Below are positions 41,460 through 55,498 of a stretch of DNA of 64,000 nt, in pieces. A program made the position numbers and the translations under genes. Origin of the DNA: Escherichia coli (GTDB lineage Bacteria > Pseudomonadota > Gammaproteobacteria > Enterobacterales > Enterobacteriaceae); NCBI RefSeq assembly GCF_024700885.2, contig NZ_CP117016.1. One strand, written 5' to 3'. Under the pieces are notes generated by a model that saw only the letters and a program-made list of their open reading frames with translations, was not told the origin of the DNA and did no database searches. Numbering within the stretch: position 1 is the stretch's first letter; each line of letters opens with the position of its first letter.

Positions 41460-42392
41460 ATGATCATCGTTACCGGCGGCGCGGGCTTTATCGGCAGCAA
41501 CATCGTTAAAGCCCTGAATGACAAAGGCATCACCGATATTCTGGTGGTGGATAACCTGAAAGACGGCACCAAGTTTGTGAACCTGGTGGATCTGGATATC
41601 GCGGACTATATGGATAAGGAAGACTTCCTGATCCAGATTATGGCTGGCGAAGAGTTCGGCGATGTCGAAGCGATTTTCCACGAAGGTGCGTGCTCTTCCA
41701 CCACCGAGTGGGACGGCAAGTATATGATGGATAACAACTATCAATACTCCAAAGAGCTGCTGCACTACTGCCTGGAGCGCGAAATCCCGTTCCTGTACGC
41801 TTCTTCTGCAGCCACTTACGGCGGTCGCACCTCCGACTTTATTGAATCCCGCGAATATGAAAAACCGTTGAATGTCTACGGTTACTCAAAATTCCTGTTT
41901 GATGAATATGTTCGCCAAATCCTGCCGGAAGCCAACTCGCAGATTGTTGGCTTCCGCTATTTCAACGTTTATGGACCGCGTGAAGGCCATAAAGGCAGCA
42001 TGGCGAGCGTCGCTTTCCATCTCAACACTCAGCTTAACAACGGTGAATCACCGAAGCTGTTCGAAGGTAGCGAGAACTTCAAACGTGACTTCGTCTATGT
42101 GGGCGACGTGGCAGATGTAAACCTGTGGTTCCTGGAAAATGGCGTTTCCGGCATCTTCAACCTCGGTACTGGTCGTGCGGAATCCTTCCAGGCGGTAGCC
42201 GATGCAACGCTTGCTTATCACAAGAAAGGCCAGATCGAATACATTCCGTTCCCGGATAAACTGAAAGGCCGCTATCAGGCGTTCACGCAGGCAGATCTGA
42301 CGAATCTGCGCGCGGCGGGTTATGACAAACCGTTCAAAACCGTTGCCGAAGGCGTAACGGAATATATGGCCTGGCTGAATCGCGACGCATAA
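41460..42392 (+). CDS. hldD: ADP-L-glycero-D-manno-heptose 6-epimerase
   Basis: 310-aa [26 protein letters not shown]; formerly rfaD. Confidence 0.96.
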
Positions 42393-44411: not shown

Positions 44412-44458
44412 TAAATAGTAAGTGGGCATTATACCCACTTACTTAGTCAACGCTTTTA

Positions 44459-45712
44459 TTATTGTGGTTCATTTTTACTCAAAAACGATATAGACAGGAA
44501 GAGGCACACAATCCACGATGCCGGTATTGGTTTAGCATGTGTAATGACATCACTAATGCCAAATAACATAATAGAAGCAGGGAAAACCAAGAGTATATAT
44601 TTTTTCTCTCGTATACAGTAATAGATCATTGCAACATAGAACATAATAAGAACAAGAAGACCAATTTTTCCTTTCGTGGAAAGAGATTCCACAATTTCGT
44701 TATGCATATGTACATCAAGGAATAATAAAGCTCCACTATAAATATTATTTTCTGCACTTAATGCTTTTATCTTTTCAGCACGCTGCTCAAGAGATTGCCA
44801 ATTAAAACCATCAGGACTTCCTTTAATTCCTGCATTAACCATTGCAAAACGTGCTCCGACCGAGGATTGACTGTTATTTTTTGTAGCATATGAAATAACA
44901 TCAGCTTTTAATGAATTAATTCGCCTATCAATTTCCTTATTAAATATCAAACCACAAGCAAGTAGCAATATAAAAACACCACTCAATCCTTTAAATAAAA
45001 ACACTTTTTGATCACGATGCTGAAGAAATAATATGACCATAATCATAAGTGGGAATGTGAAAATTGCCGCACGCGTTCCTGTCATCATTACTGCTGCAAA
45101 GCTTAAAGCAAAGTTAGCATAAAATAGAAACCATTTATATTTCGATTGCATTTTTATGAATACAATTGAAGAATATAAAGTTGTAAATGTAATCACATAA
45201 GCCGCAATAGTCGCTGCCCCCATCTGACCAATATTCCCATTCATGGCGGAGAGGGGAATGCGGTCTGCATGCAAATATATCCCTTGATAATATGCTCTAC
45301 ATAGCATGATTATTTGAACTAAGATAGCTGAAATAAAATGTAGTTTTTCATTTTGCCTGAATTTATTTTTACTTAGTAATAAAAATGTCAACGAGCTAAA
45401 TACTAATAGTTTTCCAGACTCAAGGTAGCCTCGATAAGCATTTCTATATACTACATCTTCTGTTTTATAAAATTCATACCATATAAGGTTCATTGCACCC
45501 AAAAGAAGTAAACCAAGAATTAATATAATGACATTTTTATTATAATTGTGCTTTTTATTTACAATTAATAAGAAAAGAGAAAATGCACCTGTCGCATTAA
45601 TTATTTTAGTGGTGATATTAAGATCAATTGGCACAAACAACAAACCGATTAAATACAATAAAAAAATAAAATTACAGCTATTATTTCGAAATTGCTCAAT
45701 TTTTACTTCCAC
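44459..45712 (-). CDS. waaL: O-antigen ligase
   Basis: 417-aa polytopic membrane ORF, AT-rich; position at the end of the waa outer-core operon. Confidence 0.85.
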   Translation of the reverse strand: MEVKIEQFRNNSCNFIFLLYLIGLLFVPIDLNITTKIINATGAFSLFLLIVNKKHNYNKNVIILILGLLLLGAMNLIWYEFYKTEDVVYRNAYRGYLESGKLLVFSSLTFLLLSKNKFRQNEKLHFISAILVQIIMLCRAYYQGIYLHADRIPLSAMNGNIGQMGAATIAAYVITFTTLYSSIVFIKMQSKYKWFLFYANFALSFAAVMMTGTRAAIFTFPLMIMVILFLQHRDQKVFLFKGLSGVFILLLACGLIFNKEIDRRINSLKADVISYATKNNSQSSVGARFAMVNAGIKGSPDGFNWQSLEQRAEKIKALSAENNIYSGALLFLDVHMHNEIVESLSTKGKIGLLVLIMFYVAMIYYCIREKKYILLVFPASIMLFGISDVITHAKPIPASWIVCLFLSISFLSKNEPQ

Positions 45713-45746
45713 GTTAATATCTCACAACAAATTGAAATTAACAATC

Positions 45747-46520
45747 TCATTTCAAAAGAGAAAAAAAAGCCACCTTTATCCAGGAGCGTATAAACTTCAT
45801 TCTTTTCTGAAGCCTTGTTCTAGGTTGTTTTTTTTCCGATGTTAATAGCCTTTCACTTTCAAGATGACTATTAAACTCATTTAAAATAGGATGTAATATT
45901 ATTTCGTCTAAATAAAACTCTTTTATAATATTATGTTGATGCATTAACTTCCAGCTATCAGCTCGATAGGTGCCATAATCCTTTGTCAATTTGAGCAACT
46001 TTTGTGCCATATCTTTATTCATCAAATATGAACATGTACGACGAATTTTATTTTTATTGAAATTAACACGCCGAAAAGTACAAGTACTTACCTTAACTTT
46101 ACTAAAAAGGCTTTGCCCCAATACCGGATAATCATGTAATCCTTTCTGTCCTCCAAGCAAATACAAATTATTATGTTTTAACTTGTCTTTTTCAGGAAGA
46201 TTAAAATATTGCAGAAATTTTTTAAATTTCTCATTGACGATAACATCATCCTCGAGAATGACTGCCCATTCTATATTTTTATCTATCATATCCTTATATA
46301 TAAGCTGATGACTTAATGTACAAGCAATTTCTCCATCAGTCATTTCTGCGCCGACACCACTTAATCTCATTTTATCAATAATTTCTTTATTTTGAGGGTC
46401 TTTAGCATCTATGGCATCAAAAAAATCAAAATTAATATTTAATCGATGAAAAACATCATTTATTTTATTTCTTCGCTCAATATCTCTTTTAAGTGAGACA
46501 ATATAAATGGGCAGGTTCAT
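45747..46520 (-). CDS. waaV: LPS outer-core beta-glycosyltransferase (GT25-like)
   Basis: 257-aa ORF MNLPIYIVSLKRDIERRNKINDVF; position between waaW and waaL as in R1 (waaV) or R4 (waaX) core types; symbol uncertain. Confidence 0.5.
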   Translation of the reverse strand: MNLPIYIVSLKRDIERRNKINDVFHRLNINFDFFDAIDAKDPQNKEIIDKMRLSGVGAEMTDGEIACTLSHQLIYKDMIDKNIEWAVILEDDVIVNEKFKKFLQYFNLPEKDKLKHNNLYLLGGQKGLHDYPVLGQSLFSKVKVSTCTFRRVNFNKNKIRRTCSYLMNKDMAQKLLKLTKDYGTYRADSWKLMHQHNIIKEFYLDEIILHPILNEFNSHLESERLLTSEKKQPRTRLQKRMKFIRSWIKVAFFSLLK

Positions 46521-46551
46521 TAAAAAATCTCTGGGTGATTAATCTTAATAA

Positions 46552-47580
46552 TTATTTGGAAAAATGCTTACGCGCTATTTTCTTACTATAATAGAGCATG
46601 AAATAGTAAAATGAAGATGCAATATTACCATTTCTTTTCAAATGTCCGGATTTCACTTGATACTGCTTTTCATTCGTGGCTGGAATAAACGCCACATCAT
46701 TCCAGCAAGAAGCCTGATAAGCCTCATTAAAATACTTCTGGCAGGGATAATTCGTCCAGTCGTTCCAGGGCTTCGTTACGCCAACATAATGAATCAGCTT
46801 AGTATCATCGGTAATGGTCTTTTTATAATCTTCATCGCTTTTATTTTTTAACTCATAGTCAATGCCATAAAAGCAATCATAATCGCCGCTAATAAAAATA
46901 CAATGACCAAAGAACAGAATATTTAAAATATCCTGATCAAGGCATTTATACTTCGTATGCTGCGGGTCACTTGCCAGCATAGCAATGGCTTTATTCATAA
47001 AATCATTTTTCGCCCATGCTTCAAGCTGCAGATATACTACACCGGCGTTGAAATAATTACCTGGAAGTCCCTCTATAGCCAGACGCTTCGCTGGTTTTTC
47101 CTGCATAAAAGGCACATCTTTAATAACAGCTGCGAACTTATCGCCATCAAAATTAATATCAAGCAATCCAGCTAATGAGCCTTTACAGATGACATCAGCA
47201 TCGATATATAACAGATTTTCAATAACTTCACTCAGATACTGGAACGCAACTAAACGGAAGAATGTTGCATAAGACCACTGTTTCAGGCTGGGGAAGATAT
47301 CAATAAAGGCACTGGAGACTTTATAAATTCTTACTTCAACGTTAGCATTTTTGCTAGTAAAAGCGTTAACACGTTGTAGATAATCTTCATCAATGTAGTC
47401 GGTAAAGAGATGAAACTTAACCGCAAGGTCCGGGTTATGCATAATAACTGATTGCATAGATACTGCCGCACCAAATAAAAAGTTGCGGTCAATACCGTAA
47501 GCGATATTTAACACACGATCGGTGTTAGTAATTTTCCCAGAGACAGTGACTTCAGTAATACTCTCAGCTAATAAATCCAT
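46552..47580 (-). CDS. waaW: LPS outer-core GT8 glycosyltransferase
   Basis: 342-aa ORF with GT8 features (NIAYGIDRNF; DxD at YIDADV); one of three GT8 paralogs in the locus. Confidence 0.65.
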   Translation of the reverse strand: MDLLAESITEVTVSGKITNTDRVLNIAYGIDRNFLFGAAVSMQSVIMHNPDLAVKFHLFTDYIDEDYLQRVNAFTSKNANVEVRIYKVSSAFIDIFPSLKQWSYATFFRLVAFQYLSEVIENLLYIDADVICKGSLAGLLDINFDGDKFAAVIKDVPFMQEKPAKRLAIEGLPGNYFNAGVVYLQLEAWAKNDFMNKAIAMLASDPQHTKYKCLDQDILNILFFGHCIFISGDYDCFYGIDYELKNKSDEDYKKTITDDTKLIHYVGVTKPWNDWTNYPCQKYFNEAYQASCWNDVAFIPATNEKQYQVKSGHLKRNGNIASSFYYFMLYYSKKIARKHFSK

Positions 47581-47605
47581 GTTGGTTCCGTTTTGACTGT
47601 GTGGT

Positions 47606-48298
47606 TTACGCTTTGCCTTTTAATTTTTTAATAAATTTGCGTAGTTTGGTTCTGTAGATTACTGAATAGTAGCCATAATCTTTTATTTCGTTGGCAATAC
47701 CCAGGTGACGTTCCATGGCCAGACGATCACGAGCTTTACGCTCTGCCGTACAGCTTTTACCGGATAGGTCAATTATCCTGACACCATCTTTACTAACGAT
47801 AAAGTTACCCCGGTGTGGGTCGCCCGATAGCATATTTAAGGCATGCAATTTTTCCATTGAAGCCTTAATTTCTGCTTTAACATTTTCTGGAATAATCGGC
47901 ATATCATTGAGCTCTACGCCCTCGACATACTCGATAAGCATGATAAAAACACTGGCATAGTTGAAAAATTTACGCTCAGCCAGAAAATAAAAATCATTAG
48001 GAAAAGTAAGACCTGCACTTCTGACACGATCGGTTTCAACGATCAAATTCTGATAGTAGTCACCTTTTACAAAAGATTTAAAAAAACGTTCATTCCTTTT
48101 CGTTTTCGGAGCAAAGACTTTAAAAACATAGCGACCATATTTCGTATCAATCAACGATACTTTGGTATCATCAATATTACGTAATACTTTTACTGTTTTA
48201 AAATTATAGGCCAGTATTTCATCAAAGATTTCTTTATATTTATTATCATTATCTTTGTAATAAAATGAGAAGCCGCGATAACGTATACTTGTAATCAT
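47606..48298 (-). CDS. waaY: LPS core heptose II kinase
   Basis: 230-aa kinase-like ORF (MITSIRYRGFSFYYKDNDNKYKEIF) lying between GT8 genes. Confidence 0.8.
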   Translation of the reverse strand: MITSIRYRGFSFYYKDNDNKYKEIFDEILAYNFKTVKVLRNIDDTKVSLIDTKYGRYVFKVFAPKTKRNERFFKSFVKGDYYQNLIVETDRVRSAGLTFPNDFYFLAERKFFNYASVFIMLIEYVEGVELNDMPIIPENVKAEIKASMEKLHALNMLSGDPHRGNFIVSKDGVRIIDLSGKSCTAERKARDRLAMERHLGIANEIKDYGYYSVIYRTKLRKFIKKLKGKA

Positions 48299-48307
48299 AA
48301 GAGTAAT

Positions 48308-49303
48308 TTATTTCTTAAGCTTGTACTTAATTAATGAAGTTATGCCTTTTATATACTCACCATGGGCAAACAGATGCTTATATTGTTTCTGCATTTCTGC
48401 AACAGTCCGCGCCTCTTTAAGAGGATATTTCTTCCAGGGAGATTGTTCACGCGCGATATTAAAGTATGATGCAGACGGATATCCAGCCCAGCTATGCCAT
48501 GGTTTAGTTATCCCTGTATAGTGAATCAACACTGTTTTATCGGTAATGGTTTGCTGATACTTTCGATGACTACGATCATAAAGTTCGTTTTTCAGGGTAT
48601 AAATAGTATCAAAATCCTTCGCAAGGTAGATATTATTCATATTAAATGCGATATTCAACGCATCCTGATCTAAATATTTAAGAGAGCCATATTTAGTTTC
48701 CCCTCGTAAAAGTTTGAGTAAATACGGTGTCAAATTTGCTTCATGCCATTTTTTAAGATTGACATAGATAACGCCTGCATTGAAATAACGTCCATTCATT
48801 TCGGGAATGTTGAGGCGTTTTGCACATGCCGCCTGAGTACTATCATTGTCAGGAATGACCGCAGCAAACTCATCTTTAAATATAATTTCTGTGAGAGGTT
48901 TCAGGCTTCCTTTACAAACAACATCGGCATCCAGATACAGCAGTGTGGAAATACTTTCACTCAGATATTCAAAAGACAATACCCTGAAGTATGTCGCGTA
49001 CGACCAAAACTGTGACGTCGGCAGATCAGCAAAGTATTTGGGGTCAATTAAATATACAATAATTGAGGTATTAAATTGTTTTGCTGTTTCATTAAATGAC
49101 TTTAAATAATCATCATCCACATAATCAGTGAAAACATGAAAGACAAAATTAATATCTGAATTATTAATCAAAACGGAAGAAATTGAAACGCCAGCACCAT
49201 ACAAAAAATTCTTATCGATACCGTAGGAAACATTTAGCTCTGGGGCGTTTTCTTTTTTATTATCTGCTAAATACGAAAACCGTTCTTTTATAAATTCATT
49301 CAT
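48308..49303 (-). CDS. waaT: LPS outer-core GT8 glycosyltransferase
   Basis: 331-aa GT8 ORF (NVSYGIDKNF; YLDADV); position between waaO and waaY. Confidence 0.65.
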   Translation of the reverse strand: MNEFIKERFSYLADNKKENAPELNVSYGIDKNFLYGAGVSISSVLINNSDINFVFHVFTDYVDDDYLKSFNETAKQFNTSIIVYLIDPKYFADLPTSQFWSYATYFRVLSFEYLSESISTLLYLDADVVCKGSLKPLTEIIFKDEFAAVIPDNDSTQAACAKRLNIPEMNGRYFNAGVIYVNLKKWHEANLTPYLLKLLRGETKYGSLKYLDQDALNIAFNMNNIYLAKDFDTIYTLKNELYDRSHRKYQQTITDKTVLIHYTGITKPWHSWAGYPSASYFNIAREQSPWKKYPLKEARTVAEMQKQYKHLFAHGEYIKGITSLIKYKLKK

Positions 49304-49319
49304 TTAACTTTTCTCAATT

Positions 49320-50336
49320 TCATTTTATTATCTTTAAATAAAAATAATAAATATAATTCATTATCCCGTTAATTGGTTTATTTTGTTTAAAATTATGCTT
49401 GGCGCAATAACGAGCATAGTTTGAGTTAACTGGCCGCATTAACGGTTCATTTTTCCAGGGCGATGCTTCTTTGGCTTTGATAAAAGGTTGCGCACTTGGA
49501 TAACCGGCCCAGTAATGCCAGGGTTTTGTCGGGCCGACATAATGAATTAATACGGTTTCATCATTAATTGGACAAACAAATGATTTTTTTAATTCATAAT
49601 TTAAACTAAATTGCGTATTGTATTTAGCATCAATGAATTTAACTTTCCCTAACAGGATAAGATTAAGGATATCTTGATCCATATAGGTTAAACGGGAAAC
49701 GATGGCTTTATCAGCAAGCATCGACATCGCTTTAGCAGAAACGGACTCCTGCGCCCACGCTAGTGTATTAATTAACAGGACACCTGAATTAAAGTAACCC
49801 TTTTCAAGTTCATTACACTGCAGACTTTGACCCCGTAACGACCACCAGTTAGCATCGCGTTCAGTAACAACAGCAGCAACGTTATTGGCAAGATCCATTG
49901 TTATCAGCGGCTTTAAGTTTCCCTGACAGGCGATATCAGCATCCAGGTAAAGGATCTTATCTTGTTGATCAATAAAGTAATCTGCAATTACAAAACGGAA
50001 ATACATGGCAATAGACCAATTTTTGGTCGTCGGTAATGCCTTAAGCCGTTCACAATTTACTAGATGGATCTGGATACAGGTACGATAGCTTTTCGCCAAT
50101 TGGGCTAAACGCTGGATATCGGCTTCAGGGATAGCATCAATAAAAACGTGGAAAACAAAACTCACGTCGTTGTTATGTAACAAAACTGACGTGATTGAAA
50201 CACCACAACCAAAAAGAAAGTTTTTATCAATGCCATAAGAAACATGGAATGATGATGCCACTGACGCCGCTGGCCTTTCATCGAAGATGATTGTCTTATT
50301 GATCATCTCTTGTGGATTAAAATAGTGGGCACTCAT
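49320..50336 (-). CDS. waaO: LPS outer-core GT8 glycosyltransferase
   Basis: 338-aa GT8 ORF (HVSYGIDKNF; YLDADI); position next to waaP. Confidence 0.7.
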   Translation of the reverse strand: MSAHYFNPQEMINKTIIFDERPAASVASSFHVSYGIDKNFLFGCGVSITSVLLHNNDVSFVFHVFIDAIPEADIQRLAQLAKSYRTCIQIHLVNCERLKALPTTKNWSIAMYFRFVIADYFIDQQDKILYLDADIACQGNLKPLITMDLANNVAAVVTERDANWWSLRGQSLQCNELEKGYFNSGVLLINTLAWAQESVSAKAMSMLADKAIVSRLTYMDQDILNLILLGKVKFIDAKYNTQFSLNYELKKSFVCPINDETVLIHYVGPTKPWHYWAGYPSAQPFIKAKEASPWKNEPLMRPVNSNYARYCAKHNFKQNKPINGIMNYIYYFYLKIIK

Positions 50337-50351
50337 ATTTCTCTCCGGAAA

Positions 50352-51149
50352 TTACAACGATTTTCTAATCGTTCTTTCCCTGATTTTTGTGGCTTTTGCT
50401 TCTGCTTGCGACAGCAGCCCTTGTTCCTGCTTGAGAATGTCTTTAAGCGGGGCGACAAAATACTCTTTCATAAACCGCCAGATATCCCGCTGAGTCAGGC
50501 TAATATTCATCGAAGAAAAATAAAGCCCTATAAGATCTTTATCGCGCCAACGACGTGGAACGCGCGTGCGAAGCTGCGCCCGGTGCAGGTCAATTACCGA
50601 AATTTTTAACTCCTCTTCCTTACCGGAAAAAGGCAAGTGCAGCAGGAAATGACAGATATAACAGTCACGGTGGTTAATGCCCGCAGCATGCATATCGCGC
50701 ACCATCGTCGCGACACGCTTAATAAGCATACGCTTTACGCGAACATCTGGAGGGTTAGTCGCCCAGTCAGCACAGTAATCTTCCAGACTTATGGTTGGTG
50801 TCAGATCTTCGGTAATAATAAATGAAGTTCTGGTAAGCGGATTCATGCCTTTTTCGCCAAATGCCACCCCATACATAGTATCAACGCCGACATCCCGCAG
50901 TCGATGAATCGCATTCCATTCGCGGTCTGCGCCTAATACTGGCATCCGCAATGAGAGTAAATTTTTGATTATCTCTTTCAGGGTCGTGCCGCGATGCCAT
51001 TTGAGAAAATAGCTTTTGCCCGCCATTTCAAAGCGCAGAGTGCGGCGAGTTTCCAGTTCACGAAAAACCTCACCCTGCAAGGTTTTAACTTCCTCAAAAG
51101 GATCTTTACCACGCCATAACGTGGCAAACGGCTCTTTAAGTTCAACCAT
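50352..51149 (-). CDS. waaP: LPS core heptose I kinase
   Basis: start at internal Met ([22 protein letters not shown]) gives 265 aa; the track ORF extends 3 codons further upstream. Confidence 0.9.
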
Positions 51150-52266
51150 CCAGACCACCCGTTATGATATCCGCCGCTTTTTCTGGCAGACTGTATAAAT
51201 CTTGTGTATCAGCATAATGTCGCGCATTTTCCGCCCAGGCCTGGCGCAATGAAGATTGCGTTAACGCTTTGCGTAAAATCTCATTCAATGTTTCCTGGCG
51301 GAATGGCTCAGCAATAGCCTCGCCGCAATTGGCGTCAACAATATAATGCGCATAGCCACAAACGGCTGTCGTTAGTACCGGTAATCCTGCAGTAATCGCT
51401 TCCAGCAGCACAATTCCCGCCGCTTCCTGGTAGGCAGGATGCAGTAATAAATCCGCCGCCGCCATTAATTCCGAGACATCGTTGCGCCCCGAGAAGAAGT
51501 GAACATTACTGCGCACGCCGCGTTTTTCTGCCAGCGCCTCAAATTTTCGCGGTTTATCCTGCCCAACAACATATAGCAATGTGTTGTGGCGCAGCGAATC
51601 CGGTAACGAAGCAAGTGCTTCAATGGAACGATCGACACCTTTACGCGTGAAGTCTGAACCGACCTGCAACAATAAATATTGTTGTTCGGTTATTCCATTC
51701 TTCTTACGGAAGATTTCACGGCTATTAGCTGGCTGCTGGCTATATTTACGATCAGGATAAATCCCCGGTGGCAGAATATGAAAACGCTCCGCTTCAGTCT
51801 GATAATGTTTCTGGAAATCGGCGATTTGCTTATCTGTCAGCATCAGCAGCTGTGTCGGCTTGCCCTGTTCGAAGGTTGCCCGCTCAAAGGCGGCATAATG
51901 GCGATAACGTGACGTCAAGCGATAGAAAAAGCCTTTTTCCTGCGCTACTTTCTCGGCATAACAAACATCAGCGGCATAATAAACGTCCAGCCCCGGCATT
52001 TTGTTGAATCCAACGACTTTATCGACGGGATGTTCGCGTAAATGTTTTTGCACCCAGGCAAAATACTCCGCATTGCGCCCGTGATTGGTATGCGATTTAA
52101 CCGGCACTTTGATCAGTTCAAATACATCAGGGCATTCGCCTTCCCACGACTGGGTATAAACCCGAACATGATGACCTCGGGCGGCGACTGTCTGAGCAAT
52201 ACGCATAAAATCGCGCTGCAAACCGCCAAAGGGAAAATATTTATATAAACAAAAAGCAACGATCAT
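51142..52266 (-). CDS. waaG: LPS core glucosyltransferase I
   Basis: 374-aa [29 protein letters not shown]4 family. Confidence 0.95.
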
Positions 52267-53321
52267 AACGACGTACCTGTCGTGGAGGAGGGCAGTAATT
52301 TATCGACAGCAGCAATGACATCTGCCGCCGGAATAACCGAAAGATACATCTCATTTCGGTCACGCTGATCGCGCGTTGGCATTTCCCGGTAATCTCCCGC
52401 CCAGAATTGAATCATGTTATTTGACCAGGGACGCCAGAAAATATGGTCTGTCGCACCAAACAGCGATATCAGCGGCGTATTAACTGCAGCGGCAATATGC
52501 GCCGGTGCGGAATCAACGCCAATAAACAGCTGCGCATGATCGATTAACGCACCAAGTTCCGGGAAGGTCACCTTTCCGGCCAGCGCCGTTACTGGTGGCG
52601 TCTGGCATCCCTGGGCAATTTCATTGACGCAGGCCAGATCGTCTTTATCTGGGCCGGACGTCAGAACGACTTCATAACCACGCGCATGTAAGGCATCAAT
52701 CACAGCGGAAAACTTGGCGTTGTCCCAGCATTTGAAGATTTGCCGCGCCGTAGGTTGGATAACCACATAATTTTGTCCAACACCAGCGTGATCAAGTTCG
52801 CGACGCATACGTTTCCAACTTGCAGGCGGGTAACTCATGGTTGTCTGCTTCACCAACGAATCAAGTCCCAATGGTGTCAGCACGGATAAGTTACTTTCCA
52901 CCACATTTCCACCCTGCAACGGCACCAAATGGGTGAAACTTTTACGCCAAAAAGCAGACTGCCGATGATGATAATCCTGGGAAATTTTCACACGGGCATT
53001 TAATAAGCGAACCAGTATAGCAACCATCCATTGATCGGTAAGATTAACGATAAGGTCATACTTATTGGCACGTAATACCTTGATGAGATGAAAAAAGTTG
53101 GAAATTTTTTCTGCGGCTTTTGCTTTTTTATTTTTTATGCCGTAGAGCGCGTTAATCTCTGGATTTTCAGACAGGATCGGGATGGTGTCCTGATAAAGCA
53201 GCACATCGATTTTTGCGTCAGGGTAATTTTTTTTCAGCGAACTAATGACGGGAGTAGTTAATAACATATCCCCATGAAAACGCATCTTAATGAGCAAAAT
53301 TCTTCGAAATGGCTTATCCAC
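52263..53321 (-). CDS. waaQ: LPS heptosyltransferase III
   Basis: 352-aa ORF with heptosyltransferase-family features; first gene of the outer-core operon; exact start uncertain. Confidence 0.88.
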   Translation of the reverse strand: MDKPFRRILLIKMRFHGDMLLTTPVISSLKKNYPDAKIDVLLYQDTIPILSENPEINALYGIKNKKAKAAEKISNFFHLIKVLRANKYDLIVNLTDQWMVAILVRLLNARVKISQDYHHRQSAFWRKSFTHLVPLQGGNVVESNLSVLTPLGLDSLVKQTTMSYPPASWKRMRRELDHAGVGQNYVVIQPTARQIFKCWDNAKFSAVIDALHARGYEVVLTSGPDKDDLACVNEIAQGCQTPPVTALAGKVTFPELGALIDHAQLFIGVDSAPAHIAAAVNTPLISLFGATDHIFWRPWSNNMIQFWAGDYREMPTRDQRDRNEMYLSVIPAADVIAAVDKLLPSSTTGTSL

Positions 53322-53370
53322 AAGTAACTCTTTTTGTTGAGATTATCCGATTAAGGTGAAGCAGAAAAAG

Positions 53371-53382
53371 CACGCTACCGCC
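53371..53382 (-). promoter_or_regulatory. ops element (RfaH recruitment site) in the waaQ operon leader
   Basis: plus strand cacgctaccgcc is the reverse complement of GGCGGTAGCGTG, about 50 nt upstream of the waaQ start on the minus strand. Confidence 0.75.
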
Positions 53383-53733
53383 CCAGGCTCAACAGCTACC
53401 TGAATACTGATACCGCACTGATATTGACGCGCTAGTGTATCACTTCTTTCGCGGCAATCCGACCCGAATGATTTTTAAGCACATTGTTGATTTTCAATAA
53501 AGAAATCAATCAAATAAAATCATTAGCAACCATATTCTTTCACTGTTGCTCTGCGATTCCTTCCTGCACGTACTGCAGAAATCAATGAATCGCATAAAAA
53601 TACAAAAAAAGTATAGATGTTCAGCAAGAATTGGCGGGTAAATTGCTATTTAAGTCAAAAACGGGAAAAGTAATGGTAAAGCCACAGCTAAATACATAGA
53701 ATCCCCAGCACATCCATAAGTCAGCTATTTACT

Positions 53734-55498
<1,765 letters not shown>

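Follow-up and report, generated by a model that had tools for sequence, protein, structure and literature searches.

The waaQ operon and its core type

We analysed a stretch of Escherichia coli DNA of 64 kb (64,000 nucleotides; hereafter the window) in which nine minus-strand genes run from waaQ to waaL over 8.9 kb, with junctions of -17 to +34 nt. The first gene of the operon is waaQ (rfaQ, heptosyltransferase III; 52263..53321, minus strand), whose open reading frame scores 713 bits against the NCBIfam RfaQ equivalog NF007742 (cut-off 467), the alignment covering positions 1-351 of the 352 in the profile. It is followed on the same strand by waaG (51142..52266), waaP (50352..51158), waaO (49320..50336), a waaT-like GT8 gene (48308..49303), waaY (47606..48298) and a waaW-like GT8 gene (46552..47580), and then by a waaX-like GT25 gene (45747..46520; GT25 domain, 175 bits) and the O-antigen ligase gene waaL (44459..45712), the assignments of these eight open reading frames coming from NCBIfam and Pfam. 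The waaL product scores 31.5 bits against Pfam Wzy_C, slightly below the cut-off of 31.7, and its counterpart in strain 7/2, which is ~99% identical across the region, bears the annotation "O-antigen ligase family protein". Upstream of waaQ lies the divergent neighbour waaA (53734..55011, plus strand; NF004385, 905 bits). In the window the waaW-like gene has an intact reading frame of 342 aa, and in strain 7/2 it is annotated as frameshifted (20221..21233 of our extract L001).

The start of waaQ matters for all distances given below. We place it at the GTG at 53321, which gives a WaaQ of 352 aa, is invariant among the aligned leaders and is followed by codon-like periodicity. The ATG at 53285, which we take to be the start used in an older 344-aa waaQ annotation, was rejected, since the alignment to the RfaQ profile begins at the very first residue of the protein read from the GTG; starting at the ATG would drop the first beta-strand (ILLIK). 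Initiation signals at the GTG are weak: the Shine-Dalgarno-like sequence is AAGAG, and pairing with the anti-SD yields only -2.4 kcal/mol. The GC content is ~0.49 in waaQ and waaG and 0.31-0.39 in the distal genes, compared with ~0.53 in the flanks, and the low GC of the distal genes together with the weak waaQ Shine-Dalgarno sequence is consistent with an operon of the AT-rich, RfaH-dependent type.

A terminator scan found no strong terminator inside the operon (6 terminator-like matches vs 8.3 expected). At its end, between the convergent stops of waaL and waaC, the scan found its one strong candidate, a 12-bp perfect hairpin (44417..44443) that is likely a bidirectional terminator.

In-silico PCR with published typing primers (PMC13293308) placed R4-F at 46332..46350 and R1R4-R at 46692..46711, both with 0 mismatches, giving the waaX-waaW amplicon of the R4 type (46332..46711, 380 bp). 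The other typing primers (R1, R2, R3 and K-12) have no site within 2 mismatches in the window. By this sequence typing the locus is of the R4 core type. R4 is a comparatively uncommon core type among E. coli. The earlier note, which was made from the sequence alone, had described a waaQ-to-waaL operon, and that description stands here: waaL points the same way as waaQ and closes a run of nine tightly packed genes in a locus typed as R4. The same phrase would be wrong for the K-12 and R2 core types, because there waaL belongs to a convergent hldD-waaFC operon; in K-12 and in the R2-like strain that we aligned, it lies on the opposite strand with hldD-waaFC.

The ops element and the waaQ leader

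Read directly from the minus strand, positions 53371..53382 hold GGCGGTAGCGTG, the exact 12-base ops element (in the minus-strand reading of 53000..53900 it appears as ...gagcctggGGCGGTAGCGTGctttttctgc..., with the 12-mer at 53382..53371). A pattern search of both strands found this one match in 64 kb, even when up to one mismatch was allowed. By a first-order Markov estimate, the two strands of the window together would be expected to hold ~0.007 exact copies, and shuffled sequence gave a mean of 0.24 matches at up to one mismatch. The element is on the same strand as waaQ, i.e., the non-template (coding) strand, with 49 nt between its G12 (53371) and the GTG start and 61 nt from its G1 to the start. 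The earlier note had located an ops element on the minus strand about 50 nt upstream of waaQ, which agrees with both the exact match and the spacing.

All bases with an assigned role are in place. Structural and mutational work has shown that RfaH recruitment needs ops G4, G5, T6, A7 and G8, of which G5 and T6 are read by RfaH, that the C3:G8 pair is required for a hairpin in the non-template DNA, and that T11 and G12 are required for the pause (PMC5995543). At 53382..53371 (minus strand) the 12-nt consensus GGCGGTAGnnTG is satisfied, with G4, G5, T6, A7, G8 and T11 all intact; G5/T6 correspond to 53378/53377, the C3:G8 pair is present at 53380/53375, and the pause dinucleotide T11/G12 lies at 53372/53371. 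The shorter 8-mer GGCGGTAG occurs seven times in the window vs ~1.3 expected, namely in the ops element and at six further places (2413, 27771, 42191 and 58449 on the plus strand; 63737 and 16587 on the minus strand), of which the copy at 42191 is inside hldD on the coding strand. The six were ruled out as ops sites because TG at positions 11-12 is absent in all of them. They are presumably non-functional, by their likeness to the 34 ops-like sites in coding regions of CFT073 that carry no RfaH signal (PMC9765446).

The ops element forms the 3′ terminus of a full-length JUMPstart. The Rfam model RF01707 matches 53371..53409 (minus strand, 39 nt) at 55.2 bits against a gathering threshold of 35, over model positions 1-38 of 38 and with an E-value of 6e-12 when the region is scanned and 6.4e-10 when the whole window is; it is the sole Rfam family above threshold in 64 kb, and the scan found no second JUMPstart in the window. 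A search for the JUMPstart/ops consensus, which the earlier note had proposed as a check, ends in a full-consensus ops within a match above threshold. A permissive Rfam scan also returned the plant miRNA family MIR5284 at 53522..53624, which we dismissed as a chance match (19.7 bits against a gathering threshold of 93; E 0.24). The RF01707 model places a stem of 5 bp, CAGGT/GCCTG, at 53403..53399 with 53389..53385 (minus strand). Across 48 distinct leaders this stem is paired in 99.6% of cells, with only two double changes, and its covariation is weak, the observed score being reached by 43 of 500 shuffles; the stem varies too little to show covariation.

JUMPstart and ops are parts of a larger conserved leader island (53365..53470, minus strand), delimited by a profile of 52 leaders and an alignment of three E. 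coli alleles, which also holds a promoter-like site and a conserved T-tract, CTTTTT (53370..53365). The promoter-like site is a putative extended -10 element, TGaTACACT (53434..53442, minus strand), that is conserved in the leader profile. Where does transcription start? An in-vivo pause in rfaQ has been named rfaQ56U (PMC11077087), and provided that this position equals ops U11 (53372), we infer a start at ~53427, 7 nt past the -10 hexamer. The RNA-seq-derived start of the CFT073 transcription unit projects onto position 53409 of the window. From these two indirect sources the exact start is uncertain by ~20 nt (53427 vs 53409), and under either start, both of them carried over from other strains, the ops element would be within the transcribed leader. 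A sigma-70 candidate further upstream, TTGAAA-18-AATCAT (53497..53468), was rejected since such matches were as frequent as expected from shuffles and its -35 hexamer is not kept in K-12.

The leader may also encode a small RNA. RirA is described as a 73-nt sRNA whose 5′ end is common with that of the waaQ mRNA and which includes JUMPstart and ops (PMC5736990, PMC8745692). Placing this description by the start at ~53427 gives an approximate, putative footprint of 53355..53427 (minus strand). The RirA-encoding sequence is present in the window and conserved in the leader alignments.

Conservation of the leader within E. coli and across species

Within the species the element is very nearly universal. 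A 50-nt block around JUMPstart and ops (53363..53412) has a single match in each of 5422 complete E. coli genomes out of 5426, with 4900 records at >=99% identity and the other 523 at 95-99%. The 601-nt leader query matches 5424 of the 5426, and rfaH is present in 5425. The intergenic region between waaA and waaQ as a whole is less uniform, falling into alleles of >=99% identity to the window (4438 records) and a class of 80-90% (956 records) that includes K-12 and the R2-like strain. Alignment of the window with these two strains showed that ~160 nt (~53480..53640) are heavily diverged between alleles, whereas the waaA-proximal part and the promoter/JUMPstart/ops island are near-identical between core types, so that the intergenic region is a mosaic. 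The diverged segment may mark the recombination boundary of the core-type cassette, or it may reflect different upstream regulation. Two records depart from the usual arrangement: one E. coli record has the leader/JUMPstart block on a plasmid, and in NZ_CP104509.1 the match to the leader query is confined to the waaQ-proximal 46% and falls in two places, a pattern that may reflect an insertion or rearrangement of the leader.

Beyond E. coli, taking one representative genome per species, we compared 72 loci of waaQ. In 45 of them the exact 12-mer precedes the waaQ match by 37-52 nt, and the genera concerned include Escherichia, Citrobacter, Salmonella, Kluyvera, Pluralibacter, Cedecea, Kosakonia, Buttiauxella, Shimwellia and Leminorella. 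In one further locus, that of Citrobacter amalonaticus S646 (L047), a G12A change has removed the pause G, and the leader still passes the Rfam model. In the position-wise profile of 52 leaders the ~105-nt island from 53470 to 53365 peaks at ops, which is invariant there, and among 48 distinct leaders the ops columns do not vary either. On the 3′ side of the island there follow a variable spacer, a conserved AAAGAG and the invariant GTG. The earlier note had staked its reading on the motif being kept at this position in related genomes, and it is conserved both among the complete E. coli genomes and in 45-46 of the 72 species loci.

The species without the element fall into distinct groups. 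Brenneria, Superficieibacter and one MAG without ops have a co-directional gene immediately upstream, so that waaQ is not the first gene, and Providencia, Moellerella, Arsenophonus and Hartigia, likewise without ops, have a different architecture upstream of waaQ. Kluyvera intermedia and K. cryocrescens (L008, L071) have decayed ops elements, AGCGGTAGCGTA and AGCAGTAGCGTA, at the same position and below the Rfam threshold, and no JUMPstart was found in two Siccibacter species (L017, L035) despite a large divergent open reading frame, presumed to be waaA, upstream. Since ops is lost or degraded in Siccibacter and the two Kluyvera species while waaQ is still the first gene and still has a divergent gene upstream, ops is not indispensable everywhere.

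We also observed two unusual leaders of other kinds. Leminorella grimontii (L030) has a tandem arrangement, with an ops-like GGCGGTAGCGTT and then GGCGGTAGCGTG 32 nt downstream (start to start), ~79 and ~47 nt upstream of waaQ, respectively; here the upstream half of JUMPstart has turned ops-like. In Providencia and Moellerella (L039-L059) a recurring TTCGTAAGCATG is found ~225-335 nt upstream of waaQ, in the unusually long non-coding stretch of those Morganellaceae that have no ops there.

Probable RfaH loading and comparison with known systems

What does the 12-mer do? It could have no role, being a GC-rich 12-mer that arose in the intergenic region by chance, and the excess of GGCGGTAG 8-mers in the window and the 34 ops-like sites of CFT073 without RfaH signal speak for this. 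Against this stand the expectation for the exact 12-mer, the match to the full 39-nt JUMPstart model at its whole-window E-value, and the invariance of the motif at the same position over dozens of species while its flanks vary; conservation and the JUMPstart score together refute a chance origin, to which we assign a negligible probability. Alternatively, the main function could lie in the RNA, with RirA or the JUMPstart stem-loop titrating RfaH or regulating in its own right, so that ops is conserved for an RNA function. In Rfam, JUMPstart is indeed modelled as a stem-bearing RNA, and nearly all cells of our alignment keep the pairing. However, RfaH reads non-template DNA according to structural and mutational work (PMC5995543), the rfaQ pause is hairpin-independent (PMC9291695), the leader folds no more stably than shuffled sequence (z = +0.68) and the covariation of the stem is weak, which together make an RNA-level main function very improbable. 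We see RirA as a layer on top of loading on DNA rather than as an alternative to it.

A further scenario would give ops RNA a part in a leader attenuator. In it, once polymerase has moved beyond ops, ops RNA pairs with the conserved upstream AGUGCG/UAUC to form a long, imperfect hairpin followed by UUUUU (53419..53365), at which unmodified polymerase terminates, leaving a short RirA-like RNA, and RfaH-modified polymerase reads through. The hairpin is both the MFE and the centroid fold of the leader, changes in its 5′ arm are mostly pair-preserving, with a covariation score reached by only 1 of 500 shuffles, and the T-tract is conserved; imposed on the 48 leaders, the hairpin is 92% paired, vs 29-51% for slid controls, although these pairing counts are inflated because one of the aligned sequences was itself the source of the hairpin. 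Yet the extended hairpin was not recovered by an unbiased consensus fold (RNAalifold), the base of its stem consists of two G-U pairs and an A-U pair, which is weak for an intrinsic terminator, and a terminator scan of the leader found nothing. In addition, a 73-nt RirA would end ~6-10 nt past the typical release point, the T-tract is replaced in several species (e.g., L052, L025 and L074), and the lack of excess stability relative to shuffles weighs here as well. We therefore regard such an attenuator as unlikely. If it were true, a single 12-mer would be both a DNA loading site and part of an RNA checkpoint, and RirA would be made from polymerases that had failed to load RfaH.

We conclude that 53371..53382 is almost certainly the ops (operon polarity suppressor) of the LPS-core operon that begins with waaQ, at which RfaH would be loaded. 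That loading takes place in the strain of the window is projected from K-12 and CFT073, RfaH control being carried over on the strength of experiments on the CFT073 leader, which is 99.3% identical, and on K-12. The strain is expected to carry rfaH, given its presence throughout the species; the gene lies outside the 64-kb window, and in K-12 it is ~217 kb from waaQ. From what is known of these systems, events at the locus would run as follows. RNA polymerase would start ~45 nt upstream of ops and make its hairpin-independent pause at ops U11 (53372), where the non-template GGCGGTAGCGTG in the paused bubble would fold into a small C3:G8 hairpin that exposes G5 and T6. RfaH would bind these two bases, its C-terminal domain would refold, and the protein would travel with the polymerase over the remainder of the operon. 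Bound RfaH would exclude NusG, with less Rho-dependent termination and fewer H-NS roadblocks in the AT-rich distal genes as the result, and would, through S10, bring a ribosome to the GTG of waaQ, a role with which the weak Shine-Dalgarno sequence and the GTG codon are consistent. All nine genes, waaQ through waaL, are predicted to be expressed as a result.

The ops/RfaH biology invoked here is already known and is textbook material, and the element serves as a sound internal check for a bona fide waaQ operon leader. What the present analysis adds is small: in the rarer R4 core the element and the logic of the operon, waaL being part of the RfaH-controlled unit, are unchanged, and a few enterobacterial lineages have lost or degraded ops. 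By analogy with the strains studied by experiment, both LPS core synthesis and O-antigen ligation in R4-core E. coli appear to be under RfaH control, which bears on serum resistance, phage receptors and virulence. We know of no R4-core strain that has been directly tested for RfaH dependence.

Among RfaH targets the rfaQ leader of K-12 is the archetype, and it serves as a model for class II (backtrack-type) pauses; RfaH itself is named after the rfa locus. The K-12 leader has the identical 12-mer, the same JUMPstart (53409..53371 in the window) and following T-tract, the same position of ops before the waaQ GTG and the same divergent waaA neighbour. It differs in the diverged intergenic segment, with an overall identity of ~83%, and in the end of its operon, which in K-12 is waaU, with waaL in the convergent hldD operon, whereas the operon of the window ends with the waaX-like gene and waaL.

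CFT073, a UPEC strain, is of the R1 core type. Its leader is identical to that of the window at 409 of 412 positions, the three differences (at 53662, 53541 and 53464) all lying outside JUMPstart/ops; the order waaQ-G-P-O-T-Y-W is shared, with 98.1% identity over 46623..53796, waaL is again the last gene, and the published distance from ops G1 to the rfaQ start is the same 61 nt. The two operons differ in their distal pair, a GT2 waaV and an R1 ligase in CFT073 and the GT25 waaX-like gene and an R4 ligase in the window, whose distal genes (44459..46520) have no nucleotide match to the CFT073 R1 cassette. In CFT073 an RfaH ChIP-seq peak (4229289-4239472) extends from the rfaQ leader through c4448 (waaL/ligase), deletion of rfaH makes RNAP occupancy collapse distally in the rfa operon, all RfaH targets are H-NS-bound, and RfaH-modified polymerase reads through in antisense into rfaC, in a study that used RfaH ChIP-seq and RNAP travelling ratios (PMC9765446). 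By analogy, the likely terminator at 44417..44443 may be leaky for RfaH-bound complexes.

The leaders of the O-antigen (wzx/rfb), colanic acid (wza), capsule (kps), hemolysin (hly) and T6SS (tssH) operons resemble that of waaQ in having the ops consensus on the non-template strand and in belonging to the JUMPstart family, with variant positions 10-12 in the ops of hly and kps. They differ from it in their cargo operons and in the distance from ops to the start, which in CFT073 ranges from 40 to 634 nt.
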